Positions 407 to 40,985 of a stretch of DNA of 64,000 nt are shown in pieces. Within the stretch, counting starts at the first letter, position 1; every line of letters begins with the position of its first letter. Position numbers and translations under genes: made by a program. Source of the stretch: Bacilli bacterium. Its GTDB lineage: Bacteria > Bacillota_I > Bacilli_A > RF39 > UBA660. The DNA is taken from contig JAFQQQ010000005.1 in assembly GCA_017410525.1 (NCBI GenBank), forward strand, positions 81,105 to 145,104. Direction: 5' to 3'. Under the pieces are notes generated by a model. It was not told the DNA's origin and ran no database searches. It was given only the letters and a program-made list of their open reading frames with translations.

Positions 407-418
407 TTTAACCTCCAA

Positions 419-434
419 TGTTTCACGTGAAACA
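419..434. promoter_or_regulatory. parS: parS site 1 (exact TGTTTCACGTGAAACA), 13 bp upstream of the tadA start codon
   Basis: Exact 16-mer; matches the Bacillus/general bacterial ParB-binding consensus tGTTtCACGTGAAACa. Confidence 0.8.
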
Positions 435-515
435 TATATTTTTAAATATTTCCCAGGAAATTTTTATATTTATTTTTTTATAAATTAAATATAATAAATA
501 TATTTATATCATCAA

Positions 516-531
516 TGTTTCACGTGAAACA
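516..531. promoter_or_regulatory. parS: parS site 2 (exact), core of a perfect 26-bp palindrome at 511-536
   Basis: Exact 16-mer. Confidence 0.8.
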
Positions 532-635
532 TTGATGTGTTATTAAATTAATATATTGTAAATTTAAATAATTTATAATATTTTTATATTTTTATTTAAT
601 AATTTACTTATATTATATTATGTTATGTTTTGTTA

Positions 636-651
636 TGTTTCACGTGAAACA
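636..651. promoter_or_regulatory. parS: parS site 3 (exact)
   Basis: Exact 16-mer, preceded by a TGTTATGTTT direct duplication. Confidence 0.8.
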
Positions 652-679
652 TTCGTTATTTATAAAAATATATAAAAAA

Positions 680-752
680 GCACACACATTTAGGGATTCT
701 TAAGGCTGCTGTCTTCCAACTCTGACCTGATTCGAATATAAATGTTGTGCAC
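680..752 (-). ncRNA. ffs: Small (4.5S-type) signal recognition particle RNA
   Basis: The minus-strand sequence GUGCACAACAUUUAUAUUCGAAUCAGGUCAGAGUUGGAAGACAGCAGCCUUAAGAAUCCCUAAAUGUGUGUGC contains the conserved SRP domain IV motifs AUCAGGUCAG...GGAA tetraloop...AGCAGCC. The termini pair (GUGCACA-ACAUUUA / UAAAUGU-GUGUGC) and a U-run follows. The flanks are AT-rich and bounded by parS sites, so there is no room for an Alu domain. Confidence 0.7.
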
Positions 753-798
753 TAATAATATATTATAAATAAAAAAAAATATCAATACTTTATTTATA

Positions 799-814
799 TG
801 TTTCACGTGAAATA
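799..814. promoter_or_regulatory. parS: parS site 4 (TGTTTCACGTGAAATA, one mismatch)
   Basis: 15 of 16 match to the consensus. Confidence 0.65.
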
Positions 815-865
815 TATAAATTTTACATATTTTAAAACAGTTTATTTTTATTTAGTTTATATCAA

Positions 866-881
866 TGTTTCACGTGAAACA
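866..881. promoter_or_regulatory. parS: parS site 5 (exact)
   Basis: Exact 16-mer. Confidence 0.8.
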
Positions 882-923
882 TCAATTTTTATTAATTTTA
901 AAATATATATTATGTAAAAAGAA

Positions 924-939
924 TGTTTCACGTGAAACA
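924..939. promoter_or_regulatory. parS: parS site 6 (exact), core of a 22-bp palindrome at 921-942, 8 bp downstream of the gyrA stop
   Basis: Exact 16-mer. Confidence 0.8.
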
Positions 940-946
940 TTCTTTT

Positions 947-3487
947 TTATTCTGCTTTATTTTCTATAGTTTCTTCAGGTATTTGTTGAATTGGTTGTTC
1001 TTCAGACTCATCTTCTGTATGTTCAATAATAGTAATCGTACTTACTTTTTGATTGTCTTTTAAATTGATTAATTTAACTCCTTGTGCTACACGACCAGTA
1101 GAAGATACTTGAGAAAGTGGCAATCTAATAATTATTCCACTATCAGTAATAATCATTAAATCTTCTTCACCATTTACTATTTTAAATGAAACTATATTTC
1201 CATTCTTTTCAGTAACATTAAGTGCTTTGACACCTTTACTTCCTCTGTGTGTCATTCTATATTGATCAATATTTGTCTTTTTACCATAACCTTTTTCAGT
1301 AACAACTAATACATCATCTTTTTCAGAAGATATTTCCATGCCAACAGCTACACCATCACCAACATCAATTCCTCTAACACCTGATGCAGTTCTGCCCATT
1401 ATTCTTACTTCATTTTCGCTAAATCTAATTAATCTACCGTTTGAAGAAGCAATTAAGATTTCCGCATTACCTTCTGTTATCTTAGCTGAAATAAGTTCAT
1501 CTTCTTCTTTTAATGTGATAGCAATTTTACCATTTGTTCTAATATTTTCAAACTCTTTTATGTTTGTTCTCTTAATTATTCCTTTTTGTGTACAAAGTAC
1601 AACATAAGCGGGTTGATCGCTTGGAGTTGCCTTTAACATAACATTAACCTTTTCATCTTTTTCTAAAGGTAATAAATTAATTATTGGTAATCCTTTTGAT
1701 TGTCTATTAAATAAAGGAACTTCATAACCTTTCATTCTATAAACTTTACCTTTGTTAGTAAAGAACATAATATAATCATGTGTTGTCATAGAAAGTATAT
1801 TTTCTACAAAGTCTTCTTCGTTTGTAGTCATTCCTTTTATTCCAACACCTCCTCTATTTTGTGACTTATATGTATCACTTTCAACTCTTTTAATATATCC
1901 TTTGTTTGTTAAAGTAATAACCAAATCTTCAACAGGAATTAATGATTCATCGTCTATATAATCAATAGCTGTCATATCAATAGATGTTCTTCTTTCATCA
2001 TTGTATTTATCTTTAATTTCAAGCATTTCTTGTTTAATTATTTCTAATACTTTGTTTATATCTGCCAAAATTTCTTTATATTCAGCAATAAGTTTTAATA
2101 ATTCTGCTAATTCTGCTTCTATTTTTTCCCTTTCTAAACCAGTTAATCTTCTTAATTTTAATTCTAATATAGCATCTGTTTGTATTTCAGTTAAACCAAA
2201 TCTAGACATCAATTTTTCTTTTGCCTCTACATCACTATTAGCACCTTTAATTATTGCTATTACTTCATCTATATTATCTTGAGCAATTTTATAACCTTCT
2301 AAAATATGAACTCTATTTTCAGCTTTTTCCAAATCAAACTTAGTTCTTCTTATAATAACTTCTTTTTGATGTTCAATATATTTAGCAATTATATCTTTAA
2401 GTCCTAATGTTTTAGGTGTCATATCATCAATCATTAATAATATAATTCCATAATTTACTTGGAAATTAGTATGTTTATATAAATTATTTAAAACTACTTG
2501 AGGATTAGCATCTCTTTTTAAAGTAATAGTAATTTTAACTCCATCTTTTAAATCTGTATGATAATCAGCTATTCCTTCTATTACTTTGTTATGAACAAGT
2601 TCTGCAACTTTATTTTTTAATTCTAAAGTATTTACCCCATAAGGAACCTCAGTGATGACTATATTACTATGATTTCCTTCTTCTTCTATTACAGCTCTAC
2701 TTCTTATAGTAATAGATCCTCTACCTGTTTCATATGCTTTTCTAATACCTGAATTTCCTAATATTATACCACCAGTTGGAAAATCTGGCCCTTTTATATG
2801 TTCCATTAAACCTAAAGTATCTATTTCTGGATTATCTATATAAGCAATACATCCATCTATAACTTCACCTAAATTGTGAGGTGGGATATTTGTTGCCATA
2901 CCAACAGCAATCCCCATAGATCCATTAACAAGAACATTTGGAAATCTTGATGGTAAAACTACTGGTTCTTCAAATAATTCATCGAAGTTAGGTTTCATGT
3001 CAACAGTTTTTTTCTTTATATCTCTTAAAAGTTCTAATGATATTTTAGCAAGTCGTGCTTCAGTATAACGGTAAGCAGCTGCTCCATCTCCCTCAATGTT
3101 ACCAAAGTTACCATGGCCATCCACTAACATATATCTTTGGTTAAAATCTTGTGCTAAACGAACCATAGCATCATAAATACTTGAATCTCCATGTGGATGG
3201 TAATGTCCCATAACATAACCAACTGTAGTAGCTGATTTTTTATGTGGTTTGTCAGGAGTATTACCTTCTTCTAACATTGACCATAAGATCCTTCTATGTA
3301 CAGGTTTTAAACCATCCCTTAAATCAGGAATAGCACGAGATGTAATAACACTCATTGAATAATCAAGAAATGAGTTTTTAACTTCGTTTACTATGTTATT
3401 TTCTGCTACTGTATCTCTTTCGTGGAACGTTCCACCAAATTCTTCTTTTTTTTCTATTTCTTCTGTTACTTTTTCTTCATTTTCCAT
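947..3487 (-). CDS. gyrA: DNA gyrase subunit A
   Basis: 846-aa ORF with the GyrA N-terminal catalytic region (…AAMRYTEARL…, active-site Tyr context) and C-terminal beta-pinwheel repeats. Lies directly downstream of gyrB. Confidence 0.95.
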   Translation of the reverse strand: MENEEKVTEEIEKKEEFGGTFHERDTVAENNIVNEVKNSFLDYSMSVITSRAIPDLRDGLKPVHRRILWSMLEEGNTPDKPHKKSATTVGYVMGHYHPHGDSSIYDAMVRLAQDFNQRYMLVDGHGNFGNIEGDGAAAYRYTEARLAKISLELLRDIKKKTVDMKPNFDELFEEPVVLPSRFPNVLVNGSMGIAVGMATNIPPHNLGEVIDGCIAYIDNPEIDTLGLMEHIKGPDFPTGGIILGNSGIRKAYETGRGSITIRSRAVIEEEGNHSNIVITEVPYGVNTLELKNKVAELVHNKVIEGIADYHTDLKDGVKITITLKRDANPQVVLNNLYKHTNFQVNYGIILLMIDDMTPKTLGLKDIIAKYIEHQKEVIIRRTKFDLEKAENRVHILEGYKIAQDNIDEVIAIIKGANSDVEAKEKLMSRFGLTEIQTDAILELKLRRLTGLEREKIEAELAELLKLIAEYKEILADINKVLEIIKQEMLEIKDKYNDERRTSIDMTAIDYIDDESLIPVEDLVITLTNKGYIKRVESDTYKSQNRGGVGIKGMTTNEEDFVENILSMTTHDYIMFFTNKGKVYRMKGYEVPLFNRQSKGLPIINLLPLEKDEKVNVMLKATPSDQPAYVVLCTQKGIIKRTNIKEFENIRTNGKIAITLKEEDELISAKITEGNAEILIASSNGRLIRFSENEVRIMGRTASGVRGIDVGDGVAVGMEISSEKDDVLVVTEKGYGKKTNIDQYRMTHRGSKGVKALNVTEKNGNIVSFKIVNGEEDLMIITDSGIIIRLPLSQVSSTGRVAQGVKLINLKDNQKVSTITIIEHTEDESEEQPIQQIPEETIENKAE

Positions 3488-5425: not shown

Positions 5426-6545
5426 CTAACTTCACCTCTTTGATCTTTATTATGTTGCCATTATTTATATTAAATAACTTAGATTTCTTAATTAATTTAG
5501 GATCTAAATTATTCAAATCAGTTGTTGTAATAATTGTTTGTATATTTTTACTTATATACTTTAACAAATTATTTTTCTTTTTATCATCTAACTCACTAAA
5601 TATATCATCTAATAATAATATTGGAGTTGATTCTTTATATTTCTTAAATATTTCTATTTCAGCTAATTTTAATGCTAAAACTGCTACTCTTTGTTGTCCT
5701 TGTGAACCATAATATTTTAAGTTTTTATCGCCTAAATAAAACTCAATATCATCTTTATGTGGTCCAATACTAGTTGAACAAAGTTTTATATCATAATCTA
5801 ATTTTTTATCATATTCTTTTTTTAAATATTCTTTTAAATTAGAATCTTTTAAATTTATTTCAATACTCGGTTTATATTTAATACTAAAATCATCTAAATC
5901 CATAATATCTTTATAAATATCTTTACAATATTCATTTACTTTTTTTATAAACTTATCTCTCATTTTATATATCATTATAGATTTATCTATCAAATAACCA
6001 GTTAATATTTCTATATAATTTTTATCAACAGATACTTTTTTATTTATCTTTTTTAAATATTCATTTCTTAATTTTAAAATTTTATTATACTCATTTATAA
6101 GTACAAAATAATTACTATATAACTGAGATAATTCTAAATTAATATATTTTCTTCTATTTATTGGAGATCCTTTAATTAATTCTAAATCATCTGGATAAAA
6201 AATAATTATATTCATTAAAGAAATATAATCACTTATCTTTTTTATAGTATTATTATTAAATTTTAATATTTTAGTTTTATTATCTATATAAATATTAAAT
6301 TTATTATCTATCTTCTCATTATTAACAATACCTTCTATAGTTAAATAATCACCAGTATTATTTATAAGATTATTATCTATAAAACTTCGATGTGATTTTG
6401 TAAGGCCTAAAACATATATACTTTCAAGTAAATTTGTTTTTCCTTGAGCATTTTCTCCATAAATTATATTTATTCCTTTTGTAAGAGTAACATTTAAACT
6501 TTTATAATTTCTAAAATCGTGTAATTTTAACTTTTTTATATACAT
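5418..6545 (-). CDS. recF: DNA replication/repair protein RecF
   Basis: 375 aa with the N-terminal Walker A motif [14 protein letters not shown] and an SMC-like C-terminal signature. Canonical position between dnaN and gyrB. Confidence 0.9.
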
Positions 6546-6654: not shown

Positions 6655-7113
6655 TTAGTTTTTTTCTTCTAATTTTCTTTCATATAATTTAGATTTTAAC
6701 ATAGTAGCTCGTACAATTTGATTTTCTAATGAATTAATTGAAATATCTAAATCTAATCTATCTTGATTTTTAAATAAAATTTCGCTATTTTGATGCGCTT
6801 TTTTTGATATTTCTTTAATTTTATTTAAAGCAATCCAAGTACTTTGTTTAGTTCTTGTTGAAGAAGTTGGAAAAAATATAATATTTCTACTTTCTTCTAT
6901 TATTATAGGAAACTTAGTTTTTATTCCGGTTAATGTTTTAGTTCCTATACATCTACCTTCATATGAACTTCCATAAAACTCACAATTATCTTTAATAATA
7001 CTATTTGCAGACTTTTGTACAATATATTCATATTCTTCTTCATAAACTTTAGATACTTCATCACCCAAAGGTACTATAGCTAGAGTTGCTGAACTTATTT
7101 CATAATTTTCCAT
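6655..7113 (-). CDS. comK: ComK-family competence transcription factor homolog
   Basis: 152 aa. The stretch EFYGSSYEGRCIGTKTLTGIKTKFPIIIEESRNIIFFPTSSTRTKQSTWIALNKIKEI aligns to B. subtilis ComK RFFGSSYAGRKAGTYEVTKISHKPPIMVDPSNQIFLFPTLSSTRPQCGWISHVHVKEF. The C-terminal ISINSLENQIVRATMLKSKL aligns to ISYNSFENQVYRTAWLRTKF. Confidence 0.75.
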   Translation of the reverse strand: MENYEISSATLAIVPLGDEVSKVYEEEYEYIVQKSANSIIKDNCEFYGSSYEGRCIGTKTLTGIKTKFPIIIEESRNIIFFPTSSTRTKQSTWIALNKIKEISKKAHQNSEILFKNQDRLDLDISINSLENQIVRATMLKSKLYERKLEEKN

Positions 7114-8501: not shown

Positions 8502-9857
8502 TTATCTAATTTCATTTAACATTTTTTGTATTTCTCCATTTAAATAATCATCTTTAATTATTTCTTTTTTAATTTTATCAACTGCGTGCATAACTGTTGT
8601 ATGATTTTTACCACCAAATTGAATACCTATTTTAGTTAGATTCTCATCAAGATATACACGACATATATACATAGCTATCATTCTAGGAATTGCTATATCA
8701 TTACTTCTTTTTTTACTTAACAATTCTTCGTTAGTTAAATTATAATGATCACAAACTATTTGAACTACTTGATCCATTTTATTTTTAGATACAATAGTTT
8801 TAACAAAATAATCTCTTAATGCTTCTATAGTTAAATCCATTGTAATATCTGAACCATTCATCATAGTTGCATATGCAAATACTCTTGTAATTGCTCCTTC
8901 AAGTTTTCTAACATCCCCTACACAATTACTAGCTATATATTCTTTGACATCTTCAGGAACTACTCCAGAAAGTTCATTATTTTCTATTTTCTTATTTAAT
9001 ATAGACATTCTAAGTTTAAAATCTGGAGGTAATATATTAACTTGAAGTCCCCAGTTAAATCTTGTTTTTAATCTCTCTTCTAACTTTTTTATATCGTCAG
9101 GTGATCTATCTGATGATATTATTATTTGTTTTTCATTATTATATAGTTCATTAAATGTGTTGAAAAATTCTTGTTGGGCACTTGTAGCCCCTACCAAATT
9201 GTGTATATCATCAATTATTAATACATCTATATCTCTATATTTATTTTTAAATTGTTTAATAGCATCCATATTATTAGAACCTGCATTTTTTCTACAAATA
9301 TCAACAAAATCAGATACAAAATTATCACAAGTTATATATAAAACTTTTTTATTACTATTTTTTATTATATAGTTACCAATTGAGTGCATTAAATGCGTTT
9401 TACCTAACCCACTCGATCCATATATAAATAAAGGATTATACATTTTTCCAGGTTGTTCTGCAACAGCTAAAGCACTCGTTGCAGCAAATTTATTGCTAGG
9501 TCCTACCATAAAATTTTCAAATGAATATTTAGGATCTAGATTAGATTCATATAAATCATTGTTATTAGGAACACCTATTATTTGATTATCTTCAGTTAAA
9601 TTATTTTCTACTTCTTCTTCTATAACATAATTAAATTTAAAGTTACTACCACTAATTTCAGTAAAAACTTCTTCAATTATATCACTGTAATTTTCACTTA
9701 AATTTTTTTTATGTATATGATAAGGAACTAATACAGTAGCTGTTTTATTATTTAAACTAATAAGTTTAGTCTCTGAAAACCAAGTTTCAAAAGCAATATC
9801 TGATATTTGAACTTTAATTTTCTCTAAAAATGAATTCCAAATATTATTTAAATCCAT
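8502..9857 (-). CDS. dnaA: Chromosomal replication initiator DnaA
   Basis: 451 aa with an AAA+ domain (Walker A GSSGLGKTHL) and the C-terminal DNA-binding domain IV (…KNHTTVMHA…). Confidence 0.95.
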   Translation of the reverse strand: MDLNNIWNSFLEKIKVQISDIAFETWFSETKLISLNNKTATVLVPYHIHKKNLSENYSDIIEEVFTEISGSNFKFNYVIEEEVENNLTEDNQIIGVPNNNDLYESNLDPKYSFENFMVGPSNKFAATSALAVAEQPGKMYNPLFIYGSSGLGKTHLMHSIGNYIIKNSNKKVLYITCDNFVSDFVDICRKNAGSNNMDAIKQFKNKYRDIDVLIIDDIHNLVGATSAQQEFFNTFNELYNNEKQIIISSDRSPDDIKKLEERLKTRFNWGLQVNILPPDFKLRMSILNKKIENNELSGVVPEDVKEYIASNCVGDVRKLEGAITRVFAYATMMNGSDITMDLTIEALRDYFVKTIVSKNKMDQVVQIVCDHYNLTNEELLSKKRSNDIAIPRMIAMYICRVYLDENLTKIGIQFGGKNHTTVMHAVDKIKKEIIKDDYLNGEIQKMLNEIR

Positions 9858-10338
9858 ACCGCTTAACCTCCTTAAAACTTATACACCTATATTTTACAAT
9901 ATTTTTTTACTAAAAACAACAAAAATGTGTGCATAAATCAAATAAAACAATATTTTTTTAGTTATGAACATACAATAAGAATATATTTTTTTTATAAACA
10001 TCCTCTTTTTTACTTATAAACACACTTTTTGAACATTTTTATTTCTTTGAAAATAATAAAAATTGATAGTTATTAACATTTTTGTTAATAACTTTACAAA
10101 CATAAACATGTGAACATTTTATATTAAATGTTTATAAGTGTATTATTTTGTTGATAATTTTTATACATATTTAAATTATTAACAAAAATGTGTATAACTT
10201 ATAATTGTTTTTTTTAAAATATTAATAATAATTAAATATATATTATAATTATTTAAAAGATAATAATATTTAATAATATAATAATATAATAATAAACAAT
10301 AAATATTTTAATAAAAGAGAAAAAGAGTTTAAAAATAA
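9858..10338. other. oriC: oriC region: DnaA boxes plus AT-rich DNA unwinding element between dnaA and rpmH
   Basis: Exact DnaA boxes at 9928-9936 (TGTGCATAA) and 10189-10197 (TGTGTATAA). 1-mismatch boxes at 9992-10000, 10014-10022 and 10161-10169. An extremely AT-rich tract at 10200-10330 carries reiterated TAATAATA motifs. Confidence 0.75.
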
Positions 10339-10367
10339 TTGACAAAAAGCTAAAAAAAATATATAAT
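10339..10367 (+). promoter_or_regulatory. Sigma-A type promoter of rpmH (TTGACA-17-TATAAT)
   Basis: TTGACA at 10339-10344, a 17-nt spacer, TATAAT at 10362-10367. Confidence 0.6.
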
Positions 10368-10410
10368 CTATAAAGCAAGCAGAAAAATTATAAGTGATGG
10401 AGGTGTAACG

Positions 10411-10533
10411 ATGAAAAGAACATATCAACCAAATAATCATAGAAAAAGTAAAAAATTAGGATTCATGGCTAGAATGAAAACTAAAATTATTAATAGAAGA
10501 AGAAGAAAAGGACGTAAAGTTTTATCTCATTAA
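10411..10533 (+). CDS. rpmH: 50S ribosomal protein L34
   Basis: [40 protein letters not shown] with a GGAGG RBS. Not in the ORF track (40 codons). Confidence 0.9.
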
Positions 10534-10537
10534 TAAT

Positions 10538-10568
10538 CCACTGATTCGTCAGTGGTTTTATTTTTATA
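10538..10568 (+). terminator. Rho-independent terminator/attenuator after rpmH
   Basis: CCACTGA-TTCG-TCAGTGG hairpin followed by TTTTATTTTT. Confidence 0.65.
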
Positions 10569-10582
10569 AAGTAGGTGAGTAA

Positions 10583-10933: not shown

Positions 10934-11915
10934 AAAGTTATTTATAGTAGTAATTTCTTTAATGTTTTTACTTACTGGATGTACTAAACAATTTAAAGAT
11001 GCTGATGGAAAAGTAGTACAAGATCCAACAACAAAACAAACATTAGTAGAAAACATTTTATGTAGACCTGTTAATTTAAAAGGTACTTATGAAACAGCGA
11101 TAGAAGAAAAAAAAGTAGCACTTAAAAAATTATATGAAGATGGAGATTTATCTAAAAAAGAATATAAATCAAAAGTAGATAGTTTACTTAATTTAGAAGA
11201 ACTTCCTGTTTGTACTGAAATGTCTGTAATAGAAGGCGGATATGAATCAATTTGGACAAGTATATTTGTTAAACCTTTAGCTTGGTTGATTATACAATTA
11301 GGAAAATTAGTTAAAAATTATGGTTTAGCAATCATACTTATAACAGTCCTAATTAAAATAATATTATTTCCATTAACTTATAAATCACTAAAACAAAGTG
11401 AAGCTATAAAAAAAGTTCAACCTAAATTAAATAAAATAGAAAAAAAATATGCTGGGAAAACAGATCAAGAATCAATGATGATGAAATCTAACGAAATGAT
11501 GGCATTATATAAAGAACATAAAATTAATCCTATGTCAGGATGTTTAACTAGTTTCTTACAAATACCAATATTTTTTGCATTCTATGAAGCTCTATATCGT
11601 TTACCACTTCTATTCGAAGGTAAGTTCTTAGGTCTTCATATGGGTATGACACCACTTGCAGCAGCAGGACAAGGTGATTGGTATTACTTAATATTACCAC
11701 TAATAGTTGGACTTGTTACATATTTTTCATTCAAAATGAATAAGAATGGACAACCTAATGATCAAATGAAACAAATGAATATGATGTTTAATATAATGGT
11801 AGTAATGATATTTATAACTTCATTTAGTATGTCGGTCGCAATTATTATATATTGGGTAGTTAATAGTTTATTAGGTATAGGTCAAAACTTATTAATTAAG
11901 AAAGGAAGTAAATAA
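10920..11915 (+). CDS. yidC: Membrane protein insertase YidC/SpoIIIJ (lipoprotein-type)
   Basis: 331 aa with a lipobox (LLTGC), the 60-kDa inner-membrane protein core and conserved TM helices. Confidence 0.85.
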   Translation: MKKNKKLFIVVISLMFLLTGCTKQFKDADGKVVQDPTTKQTLVENILCRPVNLKGTYETAIEEKKVALKKLYEDGDLSKKEYKSKVDSLLNLEELPVCTEMSVIEGGYESIWTSIFVKPLAWLIIQLGKLVKNYGLAIILITVLIKIILFPLTYKSLKQSEAIKKVQPKLNKIEKKYAGKTDQESMMMKSNEMMALYKEHKINPMSGCLTSFLQIPIFFAFYEALYRLPLLFEGKFLGLHMGMTPLAAAGQGDWYYLILPLIVGLVTYFSFKMNKNGQPNDQMKQMNMMFNIMVVMIFITSFSMSVAIIIYWVVNSLLGIGQNLLIKKGSK

Positions 11916-11916
11916 T

Positions 11917-12513
11917 ATGGTAAAAGTTTATAAATTTGAAAGTGATACAGAAGAAAACTGTAGAATTAAATGTTTAGAAGAATTAGATGTTTATAATAAT
12001 GAAATCTTAACAAAAGAATATGCAGAAGAAAATACATATTATATGGAAGTAGTTAAAAAATCAGATGTAGAAGAATATATAAATGAATTTTTAACAAAAA
12101 TAACTACAGATATAGGAGTTAATACAAGAATAGAAATATTAGAAGAAGATGGAGTATTTACTGCTAAAATGTTTTCAAATAATAACTCAATATTAATTGG
12201 AAAAGATGGTAGAACTTTAAAATCTTTACAAGTATTACTTAGACAATCACTTAGTAATCAAATTAAATTTAATGTAAAAGTTAATTTAGATGCATCTAAT
12301 TACAAAATAAAAAAAGAAAGATTTTTTGAAAAAGATATTAAAAACATTATAAATGACGTAATGAAATCTAAAGATGAAGTAAAACTTGATCCAATGAATT
12401 CTTATAAAAGAAGAATCGTACATTCAGTAGCTAGTGAATACTACAATATAGAAACTGAAAGTTTCGGTGAAGAACCAGAAAGATATGTAGTAATTAGATA
12501 TGTAGAAAAATAA
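11917..12513 (+). CDS. jag: Jag/KhpB RNA-binding protein (KH + R3H domains)
   Basis: 198 aa with a C-terminal R3H-like motif (…YKRRIVHSVASEY…). Conserved position after yidC. Confidence 0.8.
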   Translation: MVKVYKFESDTEENCRIKCLEELDVYNNEILTKEYAEENTYYMEVVKKSDVEEYINEFLTKITTDIGVNTRIEILEEDGVFTAKMFSNNNSILIGKDGRTLKSLQVLLRQSLSNQIKFNVKVNLDASNYKIKKERFFEKDIKNIINDVMKSKDEVKLDPMNSYKRRIVHSVASEYYNIETESFGEEPERYVVIRYVEK

Positions 12514-12537
12514 TATACCAAAAGGTATATTTTTTTA
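12513..12537 (+). terminator. Rho-independent terminator after jag
   Basis: ATATACC-AAAA-GGTATAT hairpin plus a T7 run. Confidence 0.6.
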
Positions 12538-12575
12538 TTTAAATATGTTAAACTTAATATATAAGAGGGTTTTAT

Positions 12576-12986
12576 ATGAGAAAAGAAGAAAATTTGAATA
12601 AATTAAAATATTTAAGGCACATTTTAATAGATTATTTATTTGAAACTATAGATGACAACAAGCACATTAAAGAATATTTTGATAAGTATTTATTTTATTC
12701 AACATTTGAAATAGATACTTATGAAAAAATAGGTGATTTTGAATATGTACAATTTGATTTAGCAGCACAAAATACTGGAAATATTTTCAAATATAGATAC
12801 GATATAAAAAATGATGAATATAAATTAATAGATAATCCAGTAATATATTCTGCTAAAGTAGATAATTTTGAAATAAAAAAAGAGATATTAAAAGAAATAT
12901 TTGATATAGCTAGAGAAAATAAAGAATTGTTGGCCGCAGAAAAAGTGTTAACCAAAAAATTAATAAAATTAGAAAGTATATCTTAG
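12576..12986 (+). CDS. Hypothetical protein (no recognisable domain) inserted between jag and mnmE
   Basis: 136-aa ORF, K/E/Y-rich. Confidence 0.5.
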   Translation: MRKEENLNKLKYLRHILIDYLFETIDDNKHIKEYFDKYLFYSTFEIDTYEKIGDFEYVQFDLAAQNTGNIFKYRYDIKNDEYKLIDNPVIYSAKVDNFEIKKEILKEIFDIARENKELLAAEKVLTKKLIKLESIS

Positions 12987-13039
12987 GGTATATTTTTTTT
13001 TATTTTTTTGATATTATATACGTGTTGGGAAGTGATTAT

Positions 13040-14389
13040 ATGAATGATACAATAGCTGCCATTTCAACTACTATGGGTGTAGGGGCTATATCTATAATAA
13101 GAGTAAGTGGAAATGAAGCAATAAATATAGTTAATAGAATATTTAAAGGAAAAGATTTAAATATAGTAGATAGTCATACAATAAATTATGGACATATAGT
13201 AGAAAATAAAAATATAATAGATGAAGTTTTAGTAAGTATTATGAAAGCACCTCGTACTTTTACAAGAGAAGATATAGTAGAAATAAATACACATGGTGGT
13301 ATAGCTATAACTAATAAAGTATTAGAACTCTTACTTTTAAATGGTTGTAGACTTGCTGAACCAGGAGAATTCACTAAAAGAGCTTTCTTAAATGGTAGAA
13401 TAGATTTAATAGAAGCAGAAGGAGTAATGGAATTAATTAATTCTAAAACTGAAAAATCTAGAAAGTTAGCTATTAATCAAGTAAATGGAGAAGTATCTAA
13501 ACTTATAAAAGATTTAAGACAAAAAGTAATAGAAATTTTAGCTAACATAGAAGTTAATATAGATTATCCTGAATATGAAGATATTGAAGAAATGACTAAT
13601 AGTATGATTCTTTCTAATATAGATGATATAGAAAAAGAAATAAAAAATATATTAAGTCATTCAGAAAATAGTAAACTAATAAAAGATGGAATTAAAACAA
13701 TAATAATAGGAAGTCCTAATGTAGGAAAAAGTAGTATATTAAATAGACTTCTTAATGAAGAAAAAGCAATTGTAACAGATATTGCAGGGACAACAAGAGA
13801 TATTGTGGAAGGAAATATTCAAATAGATGGTATAGTTCTTAATATGATAGATACAGCAGGTATCAGAGAAACAGACGATTTGGTAGAAAGCATAGGAGTT
13901 AAGAAAAGTCTTGATTTAATAAATGAAGCTGATTTAATATTATATGTTTTAAATAATAATGAAGACTTAACTAAAGAAGAACAAGAAATATTAGATAGAA
14001 TTAAATATAAAAATAATATAATAATAGTTAATAAAACAGATTTAAAAAATAAATTAAATTTAACTTTATTACCGAATTATATAGAAATGTCAGTTAAAAA
14101 TGATATTGGTATAAATGAATTAAGAAATAAAATAAAAGAAATATTTAATTTAGAAAAAATAGAACAAAACGATTATACTTATTTAAGTAGTGCTCGTTCA
14201 ATATCACTTCTAAAAAAATCATTAGAAAGTTTAGATGCAGTAAGAACAGGTATAGAAAACAATATGCCTATAGATATGGTAGAAATAGATTTAAAACAAA
14301 TGTGGTCAACACTTGGAGAAATAATAGGTGAAACATATACCGATGAACTTATAGATCAATTATTTAGTCAATTTTGTTTAGGAAAATAG
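13040..14389 (+). CDS. mnmE: tRNA modification GTPase MnmE
   Basis: MNDTIAAISTTMGVGAISIIRVSG N-terminus, a G-domain (GSPNVGKSS, DTAGIRE) and a C-terminal CxGK tail. Start is taken at the ATG at 13040, not the upstream GTG at 13022. Confidence 0.9.
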   Translation: MNDTIAAISTTMGVGAISIIRVSGNEAINIVNRIFKGKDLNIVDSHTINYGHIVENKNIIDEVLVSIMKAPRTFTREDIVEINTHGGIAITNKVLELLLLNGCRLAEPGEFTKRAFLNGRIDLIEAEGVMELINSKTEKSRKLAINQVNGEVSKLIKDLRQKVIEILANIEVNIDYPEYEDIEEMTNSMILSNIDDIEKEIKNILSHSENSKLIKDGIKTIIIGSPNVGKSSILNRLLNEEKAIVTDIAGTTRDIVEGNIQIDGIVLNMIDTAGIRETDDLVESIGVKKSLDLINEADLILYVLNNNEDLTKEEQEILDRIKYKNNIIIVNKTDLKNKLNLTLLPNYIEMSVKNDIGINELRNKIKEIFNLEKIEQNDYTYLSSARSISLLKKSLESLDAVRTGIENNMPIDMVEIDLKQMWSTLGEIIGETYTDELIDQLFSQFCLGK

Positions 14390-14413
14390 TATACTTAGTG
14401 TATACTTTTTTTA
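14388..14413 (+). terminator. Rho-independent terminator after mnmE
   Basis: AGTATAC-TTAG-TGTATACT hairpin plus a T7 run. Confidence 0.6.
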
Positions 14414-14489
14414 TTTAATAAAATATTTATTGTTAAAATAAAAAAAAGATAGTATAATATCAACAGAAACACGGAAGTTAGGTGATAAA

Positions 14490-16361
14490 ATGTATGAAAT
14501 CATAGTAGTAGGTGGAGGTCATGCAGGCTGTGAAGCAAGTTTAGCTTGTGCGCGTAAAGGACATAAAACACTACTTGTAACAGGTAATATAAAAAATATA
14601 GCAGATATGCCTTGTAATCCATCTATTGGTGGAAGTGCTAAAGGTATAGTAGTAAGAGAAATAGATGCATTAGGCGGAGAAATGGGGCGAAATGCAGATA
14701 AAAGTTTACTACAAATAAAAATGCTTAATAGTGCTAAAGGTCCTGCTGTTAGGGCACTTAGAGCCCAAGCAGATAAAATAACTTATCCTAAAAATATGAT
14801 TGAAACATTAAATAGTACACCTAATTTAGAAATTAAAGAAGCAATTGTAGAAGATTTAATAGTAGAAGATAATATTATTAAAGGAATAAAATTAGAAGAT
14901 GGAACTTCAATATATAGTGAAGTTGTAATACTTACAACAGGAACATATTTAAAAGCAGATATATTGATTGGGGATAAAAGAACTAGGCAAGGACCTCATG
15001 GAGAAAAACCAAGTAATCATTTAAGTGATAAATTAAAAGATTATGGATTTAATATTATTAGACTTAAAACGGGAACTCCTCAAAGAATAGAAAAGAGTTC
15101 AATAGATTATTCTAAAACAAAAGTTGAATATGGTGATGATAGATATTGGACATTTAGTTTTGATAATGAAATATATTATGATAAAGATAAACAAATACCA
15201 TGTCACTTAATATATACACAACCAGAAACTCATGAAATAATAAGAGAAAATTTAAATAAATCAAGTATGTATGGTGGTTTGGATGATATAAAAGGGGTAG
15301 GGCCAAGATACTGTCCATCAATTGAAGATAAGGTAGTAAGATTTGCTGATAAAGAAAGACATCAATTATTTTTAGAACCTGAAAGTATTTATTATGATGA
15401 CATTTATATTCAAGGTTTTTCAACAAGTATGCCTTCATATGTACAAGAAAAAATGGTGCACTCTCTACCAGGACTTGAAAATGCAATAATAAACAAATAT
15501 GCATATGCAATAGAATATGATGCAATTGATTCAAAACAATTAAAACAATCATTAGAAACAAAAGTAATTGAAAATTTATTTACCGCAGGACAAATAAATG
15601 GTACGAGTGGTTATGAAGAAGCAGCTTGTCAAGGTTTAATTGCTGGTATAAATGCTTGTTTAAAGTTAGAAGGAAAAGAACCTTTAGTACTTAAAAGAAA
15701 TGAAGCATATATAGGTGTTTTAATAGATGATTTAGTAACTAAGGGAATAATAGATCCTTATAGATTATTAACTTCACGTGCTGAATATAGATTACTTTTA
15801 AGACATGATAATGCAGATATGAGACTTAGAGATTATGGTTATCAAGTAGGTTTGGTAGATCAAGAAAGATACGATAAGTTTGAAAATAAGAAAAAAGAAA
15901 TAGAAGAATTAACAGAATCTTTGAAAAATATAAAACTTACTCCAAAAGTTGAAACAAATGAATATTTAACAAGTATTGGATTACCTGAATTAAAAGATGG
16001 AATAAGTTTATATAATTTCATAAAAAGACCAGAAGTAAAATTAGAAACTTTAACTAAGTATATAGAAAAAGAATATTCAAATGAAATACTAGAACAAGTA
16101 GAAATAAATATTAAATATGAAGGATATATAAAAAAAGCGGTAGAAGAAGCTAATAAAATGGTTGATTTAGATAATAAAAAAATACCTGAAGATATAGATT
16201 ATGATAGAATACATAATCTTGCTAGTGAAGCAAAACAAAAATTAAATCAAATAAGACCTACCTCAATAGGACAAGCCTTAAGAATAAGTGGTGTTAATCC
16301 AGCAGATATATCGTTATTGATGGTATATATAAAAAAGGAATATTTTTATGAACAAAGATAG
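14490..16361 (+). CDS. mnmG: tRNA uridine 5-carboxymethylaminomethyl modification enzyme MnmG (GidA)
   Basis: 623 aa with an FAD-binding N-terminus (MYEIIVVGGGHAGCEAS). Confidence 0.95.
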   Translation: MYEIIVVGGGHAGCEASLACARKGHKTLLVTGNIKNIADMPCNPSIGGSAKGIVVREIDALGGEMGRNADKSLLQIKMLNSAKGPAVRALRAQADKITYPKNMIETLNSTPNLEIKEAIVEDLIVEDNIIKGIKLEDGTSIYSEVVILTTGTYLKADILIGDKRTRQGPHGEKPSNHLSDKLKDYGFNIIRLKTGTPQRIEKSSIDYSKTKVEYGDDRYWTFSFDNEIYYDKDKQIPCHLIYTQPETHEIIRENLNKSSMYGGLDDIKGVGPRYCPSIEDKVVRFADKERHQLFLEPESIYYDDIYIQGFSTSMPSYVQEKMVHSLPGLENAIINKYAYAIEYDAIDSKQLKQSLETKVIENLFTAGQINGTSGYEEAACQGLIAGINACLKLEGKEPLVLKRNEAYIGVLIDDLVTKGIIDPYRLLTSRAEYRLLLRHDNADMRLRDYGYQVGLVDQERYDKFENKKKEIEELTESLKNIKLTPKVETNEYLTSIGLPELKDGISLYNFIKRPEVKLETLTKYIEKEYSNEILEQVEINIKYEGYIKKAVEEANKMVDLDNKKIPEDIDYDRIHNLASEAKQKLNQIRPTSIGQALRISGVNPADISLLMVYIKKEYFYEQR

Positions 16362-17049
16362 ATTTATAGAAGAAGTGGAAAGTCTTGGTATAGAAATAAC
16401 AGATAAAAAACTAGAGCAACTAGAAAAATATTATGCACTTCTAATTGAATATAACAAAGTTATGAATTTAACTGGAATTACGGAAAAAGAAGAAGTTTAT
16501 TTAAAACACTTTTATGATTCATTAGCAATATCTAAAATAATAGATTTAAATAATGAAAATAGTTTATGTGATTTAGGAAGCGGAGCAGGATTCCCAGGTA
16601 TTGTTATTAAAATATTTTATCCTCAATTAGAAATAGTTTTAGTAGATTCATTGAATAAGAGAATTAACTTTTTAAATACAGTAATAAAAAAATTAGATTT
16701 AGAAAAAATAACTGCTATGCATTCTAGAATAGAAGAATATGCTGTTGAAAACAAAGAACAATTTGATATTGTAACAGCAAGAGCGGTAGCTCCCCTAAAC
16801 ATTCTTTTAGAATTAGGTATTAATTTAGTAAAAGTTGGGAAATATTTTATAGCTATGAAAGGTAATATAGAAAATGAACCTGAGTATAGTAACGCAATAA
16901 AAAAATTAGATTGTTCTCTGGATAATATTGTAAAATTTAGATTACCAATAGAAGAAAGTAATAGAAGTTTAATAAAAATAAGAAAAGAAAAAACAACTTC
17001 AAAACTTTTTCCTAGAAAATATAGTGATATAAAAAAGAAACCTTTATAA
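16348..17049 (+). CDS. rsmG: 16S rRNA m7G527 methyltransferase RsmG (GidB)
   Basis: 233 aa with a SAM-binding motif (DLGSGAGFPG). Confidence 0.9.
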   Translation: MNKDRFIEEVESLGIEITDKKLEQLEKYYALLIEYNKVMNLTGITEKEEVYLKHFYDSLAISKIIDLNNENSLCDLGSGAGFPGIVIKIFYPQLEIVLVDSLNKRINFLNTVIKKLDLEKITAMHSRIEEYAVENKEQFDIVTARAVAPLNILLELGINLVKVGKYFIAMKGNIENEPEYSNAIKKLDCSLDNIVKFRLPIEESNRSLIKIRKEKTTSKLFPRKYSDIKKKPL

Positions 17050-17070
17050 TAGGTTTTCTTTTTGTTTTCA

Positions 17071-17139
17071 ATTATTTCCCAAAAATATTTATAAATATTT
17101 CCCAAACTTATTGCAATATTTCCCAAAATGTTGTAGAAT
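17071..17139 (+). promoter_or_regulatory. Promoter region of the noc-like gene with three direct repeats of ATATTTCCCAAA
   Basis: ATTTCCCAAA repeated at about 17073, 17096 and 17117 (21-23 bp phasing). These overlap a putative -35 TTGCAA (17111-17116), a 17-nt spacer and an extended -10 TGTAGAAT (17131-17139). Confidence 0.45.
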
Positions 17140-17168
17140 GATAGTGAAGAATAAAAAGGAGGGATATC

Positions 17169-18920
17169 ATGTATGATAATTCATCTAGGGTAATAGAAGT
17201 AGATATCAACGAAATATTACCTAATAGATTTCAACCAAGAATACAATTTGATGAAGAAGAAATATTAGAATTATCTGATTCAATAAAAGAACATGGTGTT
17301 ATCCAACCTTTAGTAGTTAGGACTATTGGAGATAAATATGAAATAATTGCTGGAGAAAGAAGATATAAAGCAAGTGTTCTTGCTGGAAAAGAAACGGTAC
17401 CAGTGATTGTTAAAAATTTAAATGATAAAGATAGTGCAGAAATCGCACTTATAGAAAATATACAAAGAAAAAATTTAACACCTATAGAAGAAGCATTAAG
17501 TTATAAAAAAATTCTTGATATGGGATATATAACTCAAGAAAATCTAGCTTCTAAATTAGGTAAAAGTCAATCTGCAGTTGCTAATAAAATAAGATTATTA
17601 AATTTATCTGATGAAGTTCAAGAAGCATTACTTGAAAATAAAATTTCAGAAAGACATGCAAGATCGCTTTTAAAACTTACAACTTCTAAACAACAAAATG
17701 AAATGTTAAATAGAATTATTTCTGAAAGATTAACAGTTAGAAGAGCAGATGAAGAAATAGAGAAAATGAAAAATAACGTAGAGCAGGACAAAAAAGAAGA
17801 TAATCAAATAATCATAGAAAAAGGGGAAATAGATATGAATAATAATATGTTTGGAATGCCTAATGTTCCACAAACTTCACAACCATCAACAGGCTTTGAT
17901 ATATTTGGACCATCAAATCAACAACCAGTACAACCACAACCTGTAGTTAGTGCAATACCAGAGCCTGAGCAACAACTTGTTACTCCAAGTTTTGATATAT
18001 TTGGTGGCTCAGCAACTTTAGAAATGCCTTCGAGTGTACCGGAAGTTGAAGTTCCAACAATGAATATATCAGCAGTGCCAGAAATGCCAGTAATGAGTGA
18101 AATGGGATTTGGAATAAATAATACAGAATCAACAACACCAGAAATATCATCGAGTGTTCCAAAAATTGAAGTTCCAACAATGGATATACCAGCAGTACCA
18201 GAAATGCCAGCAATGAGTGAAATGGGATTTGGAATAAATAATACAGAATCAACAACACCAGAAATATCATCGAGTGTTCCAAAAATTGAAGTTCCAACAA
18301 TGGATATACCAGCAGTACCAGAAATGCCAGCAATGAGCGAAATGGGATTTGGAATAAATAATACAGGATCAACAACACCAGAAATATCATCGAGTGTTCC
18401 AAAAATTGAAGTTCCAACAATGGATATACCAGCAGTACCAGAAATGCCAGCAATGAGCGAAATGGGATTTGGAATAAATAATACAGGATCAACAACACCA
18501 GAAATACCTTCAAGCGTACCAGAAGTTGAAGTTCCAATAATGGAAGTACCAGTTACTTCACCTATTATAGAAACTCCAATAGCTAGTTCTCCAGTAGAGA
18601 TGCCACAACAAATAGAGAATTCATTTAGCTTTGGAAATAATAATATGAATCCTGTTGAAGTATCTACTCCAGCGGTAGAAACACCAGTAGTACCAGAATT
18701 TAAAATACCAGAACCAATTATTGTTACAGATTATTCTAAACAATATGACCCAGTTATGCCACAATATGGACCAGTAGCTCCAGCAGTTGATTTTAAAGAA
18801 GTAATAAATGCAATAAGAGAATGTTCAAATAAAATAGAACAATATGGATTTAAAATAGATGTAGAAGAAATAGATTTAGTAAATTTATATCAAGCAGTAT
18901 TTAAAATAGAGAAACAATAA
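17169..18920 (+). CDS. ParB/Noc-family protein with a long C-terminal 40-aa tandem-repeat region
   Basis: The N-terminal ~200 aa form a ParB-N domain (…IIAGERRYKAS…, HTH). Residues ~285-460 carry 4.4 copies of the repeat PEISSSVPKIEVPTMDIPAVPEMPAMSEMGFGINNTESTT. Sits in the noc position downstream of rsmG. Confidence 0.8.
   Translation: MYDNSSRVIEVDINEILPNRFQPRIQFDEEEILELSDSIKEHGVIQPLVVRTIGDKYEIIAGERRYKASVLAGKETVPVIVKNLNDKDSAEIALIENIQRKNLTPIEEALSYKKILDMGYITQENLASKLGKSQSAVANKIRLLNLSDEVQEALLENKISERHARSLLKLTTSKQQNEMLNRIISERLTVRRADEEIEKMKNNVEQDKKEDNQIIIEKGEIDMNNNMFGMPNVPQTSQPSTGFDIFGPSNQQPVQPQPVVSAIPEPEQQLVTPSFDIFGGSATLEMPSSVPEVEVPTMNISAVPEMPVMSEMGFGINNTESTTPEISSSVPKIEVPTMDIPAVPEMPAMSEMGFGINNTESTTPEISSSVPKIEVPTMDIPAVPEMPAMSEMGFGINNTGSTTPEISSSVPKIEVPTMDIPAVPEMPAMSEMGFGINNTGSTTPEIPSSVPEVEVPIMEVPVTSPIIETPIASSPVEMPQQIENSFSFGNNNMNPVEVSTPAVETPVVPEFKIPEPIIVTDYSKQYDPVMPQYGPVAPAVDFKEVINAIRECSNKIEQYGFKIDVEEIDLVNLYQAVFKIEKQ
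18025..18550 (+). repeat. 120-bp in-frame tandem repeat (~4.4 copies, ~98% identical) inside the ParB/Noc-like gene
   Basis: Period-120 recurrence of ...gaagttccaacaatggatataccagcagtaccagaaatgcc... at 18050, 18170, 18290, 18410 and 18530. Confidence 0.9.
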
Positions 18921-39182: not shown

Positions 39183-40985
39183 ATGAAACAAAGGGGATTT
39201 ACATTAATAGAGTTATTATCTGTAATAGTGATTCTTGCAATCATCGCACTAATAGCAACGCCCATAATATTAGATATAATAAATGAATCAAAAGAGAAAG
39301 CATATGGTAATAGTGTAGAAAGTATAATGCATGCAGCTAAAATATATAATACAAAGAGTCAATTTAAAAATCCTTTAGTAATGGATCAAAACGTATATAG
39401 CGAAGTAATGGAAATGGTAGATGGAGAAAAACCTGAATCAGGTAATTTGTATATAAATGCAGATGGTGAAATTGCGTTTGCGTTTCAATATGGAGAATTG
39501 TGTTATAGTAAAAGCTATGAGGATGATACATATACAAAGGAAAAAACTAATGTGTGCAATGTACCTTTTTATTATTTGAAATCAGTATCTGCACAAACAA
39601 ATGGAGATGACAACCCTTTTTTAGAAAATACATATGGTATATCAAAGGCAAAAATAGAAGAGATAATAACAGTAAATAGCAATAAAGTGTCTGATGATGC
39701 AATATATAGTTGGGAAGTAACAGATCAGGAGAATGTCAAAGAAGAGTATAAAGTAATGGCTTGGTGTCTAGATGTAGATAAAGATGGATTATATGAAGTA
39801 TATATAGGTCAAAATGGCGGGGTAAAAGCAAACCCAAATTCCTCAAAATTATTTGCTTATTTAACAAATGTAACAAAAATAGATTTAAAAAATTTTGATA
39901 CATCAAATGTGACAACGATGATGGGAATGTTTAATTATTGTAAAAATTTACAAATACTAGATTTAAGTAATTTTAATACTAGCAAAGTAACAACAATGGC
40001 AGGAATGTTCCAACAATGTAATTCTTTAATAGAGTTGAATTTAAGTAGCTTTGATACATCAAATGTGACAGACATTTCTTATATGTTTAACAAATGCTAT
40101 GCATTGACAAAGTTAAATTTAAGTAAATTTAACACTAGCAAAGTAACAACGATGGTTGCAATGTTCCAATACTGTGAATCTTTAACAAAATTAAATTTAA
40201 GTAATTTTGATACATCAAATGTAACAACAATGGCAGGAATGTTTAATTGTTGTAAAAATTTACAAACATTAAATTTAAGTAATTTTGATACATCAAATGT
40301 AACAACAATGTCAATGATGTTTCAACAATGTAATTCTTTAATAGAACTAGATTTAAGTAGCTTTAATACATCAAAAGTGGAAAATATGGAATTAATGTTT
40401 AATAATTGCTATGCATTGACAAAGCTAGATTTAAGTAAATTTAATACTAGCAAAGTAACAACAATGGCAGGAATGTTCCAACAATGTAAATCCTTAAAAG
40501 AGCTAAATCTAAGTATCTTTAATACATCAAAAGTGGAAAATATGGCAGGAATGTTTAGTGGTTGTGAAATATTGACAAAGCTAGATTTAAGTAATTTTAA
40601 TACAAGTAATGTAATAAAAATGAGTGGAATGTTTCAAAATTGTTATAATTTGAAAGAATTAAATCTAAATAAGTGGAATACATCGAAAGTAACAACGATG
40701 TCACATATGTTTAACAATTGTAAAGCTTTAACAGAATTAGATTTAAGCACTTTTGATACGTCAAAAGTAGAATATATTTCTTATATGTTTAATAATTGTC
40801 AATCCTTGAAACAAATAAACTTAAAACAAGCAACATTTGAAAGTATCAAGGAAAACGAATATAACAAAGTTTTTAATGGGGCAACTACTTTAAATAAAAT
40901 AATTGTAGAAGATGATGAAGCAATAACCTGGTTGCAAGCAAGGATAAATGATAATGGATTAACAGCATTAGTATCAAAAACATAA
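39183..40985 (+). CDS. Protein with a type IV prepilin-like N-terminal signal fused to ~17 DUF285/BspA-type leucine-rich repeats
   Basis: N-terminal MKQRGFTLIELLSVIVILAIIALIATPI is the class III prepilin cleavage/methylation motif (G-F-T-L-I-E). Then come reiterated ~26-aa units LxLSxFDTSxVTxMxxMFxxCxxL. Confidence 0.8.
   Translation: MKQRGFTLIELLSVIVILAIIALIATPIILDIINESKEKAYGNSVESIMHAAKIYNTKSQFKNPLVMDQNVYSEVMEMVDGEKPESGNLYINADGEIAFAFQYGELCYSKSYEDDTYTKEKTNVCNVPFYYLKSVSAQTNGDDNPFLENTYGISKAKIEEIITVNSNKVSDDAIYSWEVTDQENVKEEYKVMAWCLDVDKDGLYEVYIGQNGGVKANPNSSKLFAYLTNVTKIDLKNFDTSNVTTMMGMFNYCKNLQILDLSNFNTSKVTTMAGMFQQCNSLIELNLSSFDTSNVTDISYMFNKCYALTKLNLSKFNTSKVTTMVAMFQYCESLTKLNLSNFDTSNVTTMAGMFNCCKNLQTLNLSNFDTSNVTTMSMMFQQCNSLIELDLSSFNTSKVENMELMFNNCYALTKLDLSKFNTSKVTTMAGMFQQCKSLKELNLSIFNTSKVENMAGMFSGCEILTKLDLSNFNTSNVIKMSGMFQNCYNLKELNLNKWNTSKVTTMSHMFNNCKALTELDLSTFDTSKVEYISYMFNNCQSLKQINLKQATFESIKENEYNKVFNGATTLNKIIVEDDEAITWLQARINDNGLTALVSKT

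Follow-up and report, generated by a model that had tools for sequence, protein, structure and literature searches.

Organisation of the gyrA-tadA spacer

In the 64-kb stretch of DNA analysed here (the window), the minus-strand genes gyrA (947-3487) and tadA (1-406; the gene starts at 406 and runs off the window) are separated by a 540-bp gap, which holds six parS palindromes and the minus-strand ffs gene for the small bacterial SRP RNA (665-760; Rfam RF00169, 56.4 bits against a gathering score of 40). Read along the minus strand, the order is dnaA, dnaN, comK, recF, gyrB, gyrA, three parS, ffs, three parS, tadA and, in the source contig, dnaX; gyrA and tadA thus form the upstream and downstream boundaries of the array, and all three flanking genes are those named in the first-pass annotation. 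The GC skew changes sign at ~10 kb, by dnaA (8502-9857, minus strand) and rpmH-rnpA, and this flip together with the position of dnaA places oriC in the region of dnaA and its upstream intergenic sequence (8502-10582), 8.9 kb from the nearest palindrome, parS6. The array is therefore origin-proximal, with oriC ~9 kb away. The array itself was also considered as an origin element and rejected, as no DnaA boxes were found in it.

The palindrome TGTTTCACGTGAAACA is the parS consensus and matches the chromosomal parS site tGTTNCACGTGAAACa. Five exact copies are present, parS1 (419-434), parS2 (516-531), parS3 (636-651), parS5 (866-881) and parS6 (924-939), and the sixth, parS4 (799-814), reads TGTTTCACGTGAAATA, with a single mismatch to the consensus that falls at a specificity position. 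The six sites span 521 bp (419-939), are embedded in a common 18-mer, A-parS-T, and at positions 2 and 7 have the G and the A specific to parS. In dinucleotide-preserving shuffles only 0.01 sites are expected by chance at up to 2 mismatches, and 0 of 100 shuffles reached six. No further parS was found in the window outside 419-939, even at 3 mismatches, and none lies inside spo0J (41924-42808). The source contig, a 75-kb metagenome contig (ENA ERZ28019288 k141_850616; loci L001 and L258), likewise has no more parS beyond the window, and the array is the only such locus in ~74 kb. The number, positions and exactness of the sites, as well as their confinement to this gap, had all been proposed from a first inspection of the DNA and were reproduced here. 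The spacings of 97, 120, 163, 67 and 58 bp are irregular, and the spacers consist of unrelated, unique AT-rich sequence. No tandem period was detected in the array by TRF, and the fixed-period direct repeats of a plasmid-type array are thus absent, which argues that the window array is not a recent tandem duplication, unlike those of two relatives described below.

Several of the sites are extended into longer palindromes, as the first-pass annotation had noticed, although not of the 22-26 bp it gave. The palindrome around parS2 is perfect over 28 bp (510-537), that at 792-821 covers 30 bp with one mismatch, and that around parS6, AAAAAGAA-parS6-TTCTTTTT, is perfect over 32 bp (916-947) and begins at the gyrA stop codon. 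The other three sites are 18-bp palindromes with weak folds (-6 kcal/mol, z ~ -1.3). Terminator-like elements with stable folds were called at 510-537 and 916-947, of which the latter forms a predicted hairpin of -15 kcal/mol (z = -5.0) that ends in TTTTT. The outermost sites, parS1 and parS6, lie 12 nt from the tadA ATG and 7 nt from the gyrA stop, equal within counting convention to the 13 and 8 bp given earlier.

Between parS1 and parS2 there is one more palindrome, TATTTCCCAGGAAATT (447-462), which resembles the Noc-binding site NBS (tATTTCCCGGGAAATa), with 2 mismatches to the 16-mer and 1 to its 14-mer core. Each of its half-sites has the bases specific to NBS (A2 and C7), and a C is changed to T at the centre relative to NBS. 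It is the only NBS-type site in the window, is 100% conserved in 5 close relatives and is conserved in 6 relatives in all; perfect NBS motifs stand separately in the flanks of relatives.

Conservation and probable RNA signals in related genomes

A GyrA-based scan, taking one genome per species, yielded 80 loci, ~45 of which have 63-96% GyrA identity to the window and derive from uncultured gut metagenome-assembled genomes (MAGs) of sheep, deer, rabbit, mouse and human, labelled Bacilli, Tenericutes or Erysipelotrichaceae. In the 45 related loci (744 kb), 194 parS sites were found at up to 1 mismatch; every one of them is in the 2.1 kb downstream of gyrA, and none in the other 674,624 bp. Over these loci the palindrome is thus not a dispersed generic repeat, and the sites are conserved under selection. 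A comparison of the tadA-ffs-gyrA spacer across relatives, suggested from the outset, reveals a variable number of sites, with a median of 5 per locus and a range of 0-9 over the 45 loci; several relatives hold 0-2. These counts are lower bounds, since 14 of 46 related contigs break off within the array.

Alignment of the locus with those of five close relatives gives a pairwise identity of 96.5% for the parS columns against 77.9% for the spacers, with large indels between the sites and differing site numbers. The orthologue of parS4, the sole imperfect site of the window, has decayed in one relative (L003), which suggests that individual copies are redundant. Tandem expansions are seen as well: two relatives carry arrays of 39 bp x 9.2 (L016) and 39 bp x 7.1 (L027), others have further periodic parS spacings, and in L010 a unit of parS, promoter and ffs is duplicated. 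Three Erysipelotrichaceae-type loci, L047 (labelled Thomasclavelia), L049 and L052, have 2-3 sites in the spacer downstream of gyrA, and the Bacillaceae and Clostridia loci of the scan have no parS in this spacer. Together, the comparative data show that the 16-mer is under purifying selection, keeps one chromosomal address and turns over quickly in copy number.

The placement of individual sites relative to the neighbouring genes is also conserved. A probable ffs promoter, TTGATA-17-TATATT (757-785, minus strand; 10/12 matches), is kept in relatives, and its assignment rests mainly on this conservation and on its position. Within 300-1100, promoter-like matches number 8 where 9.2 would be expected by chance, and no tadA promoter is therefore proposed. 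In the window's subclade one parS, corresponding to parS4, which ends 38 nt upstream of the ffs 5′ end, sits just before this conserved promoter and ends 37-38 nt upstream of ffs in nine loci and 33 nt in a tenth (L020), and another lies within ~15 nt of the ffs 3′ end (parS3, 13 nt downstream, in the window). The last parS ends 10-13 nt ahead of the tadA ATG in 12 loci and abuts the Shine-Dalgarno sequence, as parS1 adjoins GGAGG in the window, and the junction ACAttGGAGG is conserved in relatives. Three relatives with just two sites (L007, L008 and L053) retain exactly the pair that brackets ffs, and in more distant members of the clade every parS is located between gyrA and ffs, with none at tadA. 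An effect of bound ParB on expression of tadA and ffs and on termination of gyrA, as anticipated in the first-pass annotation, is plausible; what the comparison shows is that the positions are conserved.

At the gyrA end a parS probably overlaps with an RNA signal. In ~19 loci the gyrA-proximal parS lies 0-17 nt past the stop codon, usually inside a longer palindrome, and its flanks differ between genomes yet stay complementary. In an ungapped alignment of 20 gyrA-proximal sites, 86.9% of the cells are paired, compared with 44-58% in slid registers, and 58 double-sided changes are observed against 27 +/- 3.5 in shuffles, none of 500 of which reached 58. An extension of at least 5 bp combined with a T-tract is present at 12 of 42 first (gyrA-proximal) sites and at 1 of 156 others; in a few relatives the A/T tracts of this hairpin occur in the reverse order. 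The 916-947 element thus has, on sequence grounds, the stem-loop, U-tract and compensatory changes of an intrinsic (rho-independent) terminator, and the parS6 copy probably doubles as the bidirectional intrinsic terminator of gyrA. Across the clade, at least 5 bp of extra palindromic flank are found at 28% of the sites, a 12-fold excess over the 2.3% obtained with shuffled flank pairings, and this excess is beyond what recognition of the 16-mer by ParB explains. This probable use of parS as a terminator stem illustrates how a compact genome can superimpose an RNA signal on a palindrome bound by protein.

Partition proteins and the role of the array

The window encodes both a ParA partner and a ParB with parS-type specificity. 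The plus-strand genes soj/parA (41158-41943), with the deviant Walker A motif KGGVGKT, and spo0J/parB (41924-42808) are separated from the array by 41 kb and by oriC, and the array is therefore not adjacent to its own parAB operon. The 294-aa Spo0J carries the ParA-contact motif LGRGL, the CTP motif GERRVRA and the sequence GKSR...GHAR, and its best match among proteins of solved structure is B. subtilis Spo0J (6SDK, E = 4e-64). A second ParB homologue, the 583-aa product of a plus-strand gene adjoining rsmG (17169-18920), is of the Noc type. Discrimination between parS and NBS is set by four residues; R173 and G201 (Caulobacter numbering) are invariant in ParB and contact parS, whereas Noc is defined by Q173, K179/K184 and R201, a set with which NBS comes to be preferred over parS (Jalal et al. 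2020, PMC7383237). Aligned to solved ParB/Noc structures, Spo0J reads GKSR-SHITN-I-LGLL-R...M-G-HAR and has R173 and G201, and the paralogue reads GKSQ-SAVAN-K-IRLL-N...E-R-HAR (GKSQ..NK..RHAR) and has Q173, K179 and R201. These residues make Spo0J the predicted reader of the six parS sites and the paralogue the predicted reader of NBS-type sites, so that Spo0J is presumed to read the array of the window and the paralogue the 447-462 palindrome, not parS. The alignment of the paralogue begins at about Noc residue 26, without the N-terminal membrane-targeting helix region of B. subtilis Noc, and the protein has a repetitive linker of ~300 aa with a Pro/Glu-rich 40-aa repeat. Matches of its C-terminal part to leucine-rich repeat (LRR) proteins in the PDB (YopM, IpaH) were rejected as artefacts of this repeat.

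Taken together, the array is very probably the chromosome's origin-proximal centromere and ParB loading centre. The first-pass reading of the six palindromes as a ParB/Spo0J parS array near the origin that brackets ffs is strongly supported by indirect evidence, namely the consensus, the cognate proteins, oriC at 9 kb and the 45 relatives. By analogy with the established B. subtilis and Caulobacter systems, from which binding, clamp loading, spreading and SMC recruitment are carried over, a Spo0J/ParB dimer would bind each 16-mer, close as a CTP-dependent clamp and slide onto the flanking DNA, and with six sites in 520 bp the loading of ParB would be concentrated in a single zone, 9 kb from oriC. 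The partition complex would be moved by Soj/ParA and, as in B. subtilis, would be expected to recruit SMC. The highly transcribed ffs is a potential roadblock, and one may speculate that having parS before and after it lets ParB load on each side. A single parS is often enough for segregation (review, PMC7333895), and the density of six sites may thus reflect drift or tandem slippage instead of function.

All other explanations considered are much less likely than a ParB loading centre, in that the core of the sites is invariant while only their flanks covary, and the specificity residues point to Spo0J. If the array served mainly for transcriptional control of SRP RNA, TadA and gyrase by ParB, with segregation secondary, ParB would act at the UP-element position of ffs, the 5′ leader of tadA and the gyrA terminator. 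The conserved distances at ffs (ten loci) and tadA (12 loci) and the two-site relatives that keep just the ffs-bracketing pair would fit such a role, and ParB-dependent repression beside parS is reported for P. aeruginosa (PMC5521831). Positional conservation is, however, explained equally well by descent and scarce intergenic space, the distant clade members have no site at tadA, and in L003 the site upstream of ffs has decayed with the promoter intact. In B. subtilis, moreover, the spreading of Spo0J barely affects transcription, and control as the main role is considered unlikely. It is also very improbable that the palindromes have been selected as hairpins, be it terminators, RNA-stability or insulator elements or DNA cruciforms, and resemble parS only incidentally. 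The 12-fold excess of extended palindromes, the covarying gyrA-proximal flanks and the two stable terminator-like folds do speak for hairpins, but the 16-bp core is essentially invariant over ~200 sites and the flanks alone covary; hairpin selection tolerates compensatory change, and an invariant core is therefore the signature of protein recognition. The core is, besides, the cross-phylum parS consensus with a cognate ParB encoded in the window, half of the window sites are 18-bp palindromes with weak folds, and extensions with a T-tract are nearly restricted to the gyrA-proximal copies.

The sites could further be read by the Noc-like paralogue and not by Spo0J, forming a nucleoid-occlusion platform and not a centromere, given that the paralogue is encoded 16 kb away and that a Noc-type palindrome lies inside the array. 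The paralogue nevertheless has the residues that confer a preference for NBS over parS (PMC7383237), the six sites have the G2 and A7 specific for parS, and the relatives hold separate perfect NBS motifs in their flanks, all of which leaves this reading with very little probability. An array with no dedicated function, arising from misassembly or as a mobile or dispersed repeat, appears least probable. The sequence does come from a metagenome assembly, and the breaks of 14 of 46 related contigs in the array indicate that assembly is perturbed there, but arrays recur in the same syntenic position in separately assembled sequences from sheep, deer, rabbit, mouse and human samples, no copies were found in the 675 kb of sequence around them, and there is neither a transposase nor a terminal-repeat structure, the spacers being unique.

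Alongside the preferred role as a ParB loading centre, a secondary layer is moderately supported, in which some parS copies also act at the RNA level because intergenic space is scarce. The gyrA-proximal copy would top the gyrA terminator hairpin, two copies bracket ffs at fixed distances, and the conserved Noc-type site stands beside the last parS. A further-reaching version, in which centromere and a small transcription unit have become one in this genome-reduced gut lineage and the parS sites are both ParB loading sites and RNA-level elements, with a conserved Noc-type site within the same 500 bp, is conceivable but rather doubtful. The RNA elements would then be the gyrA terminator stem, boundary and leader hairpins of an ffs-tadA transcript, as well as one occupying the UP position of the ffs promoter, and the compensated long palindromes (28% of the sites) would reflect hairpin or cruciform selection atop ParB recognition. 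If this were so, occupancy by ParB, and possibly by Noc, would couple the segregation state of the origin to the production of gyrase, SRP RNA and TadA.

Comparison with other parS clusters

Among the closest known systems is that of B. subtilis, whose Spo0J-parS is the founding chromosomal centromere of the Firmicutes. The two share an identical 16-bp palindrome (tGTTNCACGTGAAACa), an origin-proximal position, Soj and Spo0J, and a Noc paralogue by rsmG. In B. subtilis the parS sites are dispersed singly and one of them is inside spo0J, whereas the window has six sites in 521 bp and none in spo0J, with soj-spo0J 41 kb off across oriC. The Noc-NBS system of nucleoid occlusion has its likeness in the single NBS-type site at 447-462 and in the paralogue with Noc specificity residues, but the six main sites are of the parS type and the paralogue differs in its missing N-terminal helix region and its ~300-aa repetitive linker. 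Plasmid centromere arrays resemble the array in having multiple partition-protein sites close together, and the fixed 39-bp period of L016 and L027 brings these relatives nearer still. The sopC of the F plasmid, for instance, consists of 12 x 43-bp repeats. The parS repeats of pSM19035 are another plasmid centromere array (PMC9499535). The window array, by contrast, is spaced irregularly at 58-163 bp, uses the chromosomal consensus, has a distant par operon and is located on a chromosome beside oriC.

Chromosomes are reported to carry from one to ~23 parS, with 20-23 in Streptomyces and Listeria, and their clustering is regarded as an open question (Jalal and Le review, PMC7333895). Myxococcus xanthus has 24 parS upstream of parAB, ~30 kb from the origin (Harms et al. 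2013, PMC3778016), and clusters of three to six parS have been reported in Neisseriaceae symbionts. As in the window, many repeated parS make up one origin-proximal chromosomal centromere in M. xanthus, but its cluster adjoins parAB, whereas the window array is far from parAB, has fewer copies and overlaps the signals of RNA genes. Scanning metagenomes for pairs of exact parS at a distance of 25-55 bp gave at least 120 loci with closely paired consensus sites, and 12 of the matches listed have five or more sites per 600 bp. Examples are L192, with 10 parS in ~550 bp upstream of parAB, and L102, with 15 parS, the first 14 within 0.9 kb and 10 within 600 bp, at 1 kb from dnaA; L152 and L125 are other dense arrays. 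These four have the same consensus 16-mer at comparable or higher density and are likewise found by origin-region genes, but they belong to other lineages (GC 35-55%), their neighbours are parAB, rsmG and dnaA, and none of the best listed arrays is at gyrA-ffs. With these arrays and the published clusters, dense consensus-parS arrays are seen to be recurrent in nature. The density in the window is high compared with model organisms, though not unique, and the initial description of it as unusual was overstated in view of the equally dense metagenome loci and the 24-site Myxococcus cluster.

What is particular here is the gyrA-ffs-tadA address 41 kb from soj-spo0J, the conservation throughout the clade and the overlap with RNA signals, and no earlier account of such an arrangement was found in the literature linking parS to gyrA, ffs, tadA or terminators. 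The locus leaves the current picture of ParABS unchanged and extends it to an unstudied lineage, as a natural example of an extremely compact chromosomal centromere with six sites in 0.5 kb, and in relatives as many as nine, repeated every 39 bp, kept at a fixed syntenic position across an uncultured gut lineage while its copy number turns over quickly. Why parS number varies and what drives parS clustering are listed as open questions in the ParABS review (PMC7333895), and for both a comparative series is offered by this clade, in which the number at a single locus runs from none to nine or more. The paired-parS pattern is also present in 56 viral contigs, with up to 8 sites.

A candidate Noc-binding site within the parS array

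The parS array between gyrA and tadA harbors, judged by its sequence, a candidate Noc-binding site (NBS), the palindrome TATTTCCCAGGAAATT at positions 447-462, which is the sole NBS-type palindrome in the 64-kb window. The palindrome is 100% conserved at the same position in the gyrA loci L002, L003, L004, L006 and L010 of related uncultured gut Bacilli, where it lies 8-12 bp ahead of the last, tadA-proximal parS. The related locus L025 carries it as well, and perfect NBS motifs are found scattered in the flanks of the relatives' loci.

Extended palindromes and tandem repeats in the clade

Extension of the parS palindromes is a recurrent feature of the clade, as at least 5 bp of extra, perfectly complementary flank is present at 28% of the 198 parS sites in the gyrA loci (L001-L044, L053 and L076), compared to 2.3% of shuffled flank pairings. 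The complementary flanks differ in sequence from site to site, and among the extended palindromes T-tracts are confined to the gyrA-proximal copies.

Several of the related arrays are built of tandem repeats. In L010 (12682-13025), a parS-promoter-ffs unit is tandemly duplicated, and the SRP RNA gene is therefore present twice, the copies being separated by 164 bp and each having parS on both sides. Fixed-period tandem parS arrays are present in L016 (12574-12940; 39 bp, 9.2 copies) and L027 (12478-12749; 39 bp, 7.1 copies), and also in L023, L037, L038, L042 and L076, with periods of 28, 122, 57 and 63 bp. The variants TGTTCCACGTGAAACA or TGTTTCACGTGGAACA are frequent in these tandem arrays, which frequently reach the contig end. 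In the window itself, a (TTATG)x6.4 microsatellite at 608-639 lies directly against parS3 (636-651).

Dense parS arrays outside the clade

Among the matches listed, consensus parS arrays denser than that of the window occur in the unrelated metagenome contigs L102, L192, L152, L125 and L185. The L102 array (1044-1964) has 15 sites, 10 of them within 600 bp, and is located 1 kb from dnaA, the L192 array (1693-2240) lies upstream of parAB and packs 10 sites into 550 bp, and one array of the L152, L125 and L185 set comprises 17 parS across 9.7 kb around parAB-rsmG. Closely paired consensus chromosomal parS are also present in 56 IMG/VR viral contigs (L202-L257), of which L248 has eight sites at 6137-6460, spaced mostly by 38 bp, with no detectable ParB across its 7.9 kb. 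Such contigs may represent phage or plasmid elements that borrow the host ParB.

The Noc-type paralogue and the gene order of the origin region

A Noc-type ParB paralogue of 583 aa (17169-18920, forward strand) adjoins rsmG and carries the specificity residues Q173, K179 and R201 (Caulobacter ParB numbering). Unlike B. subtilis Noc, it lacks the N-terminal amphipathic-helix region; it has a Pro/Glu-rich linker of about 300 aa, containing four repeats of about 40 aa each, followed by a short C-terminal domain. An LRR identity based on PDB matches was rejected, since the matches are repeat artefacts. While soj-spo0J adjoins rsmG-noc in B. subtilis, in the window soj-spo0J (41158-42808) is separated from rsmG-noc (16348-18920), lying about 22 kb beyond it on the right replichore and 41 kb from the parS array.

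The origin gene cluster also contains a comK homologue (6655-7113, reverse strand; Pfam ComK, E = 1e-42) between recF and dnaN. A 600-aa protein (39183-40985, forward strand) combines an N-terminal type-IV-pilin methylation motif with DUF285/LRR repeats, and an agr-like module of AgrB, a LytTR regulator and an HATPase_c_5 kinase is found immediately past the right end of the window (11849-14677 of the source-contig sequence L258).
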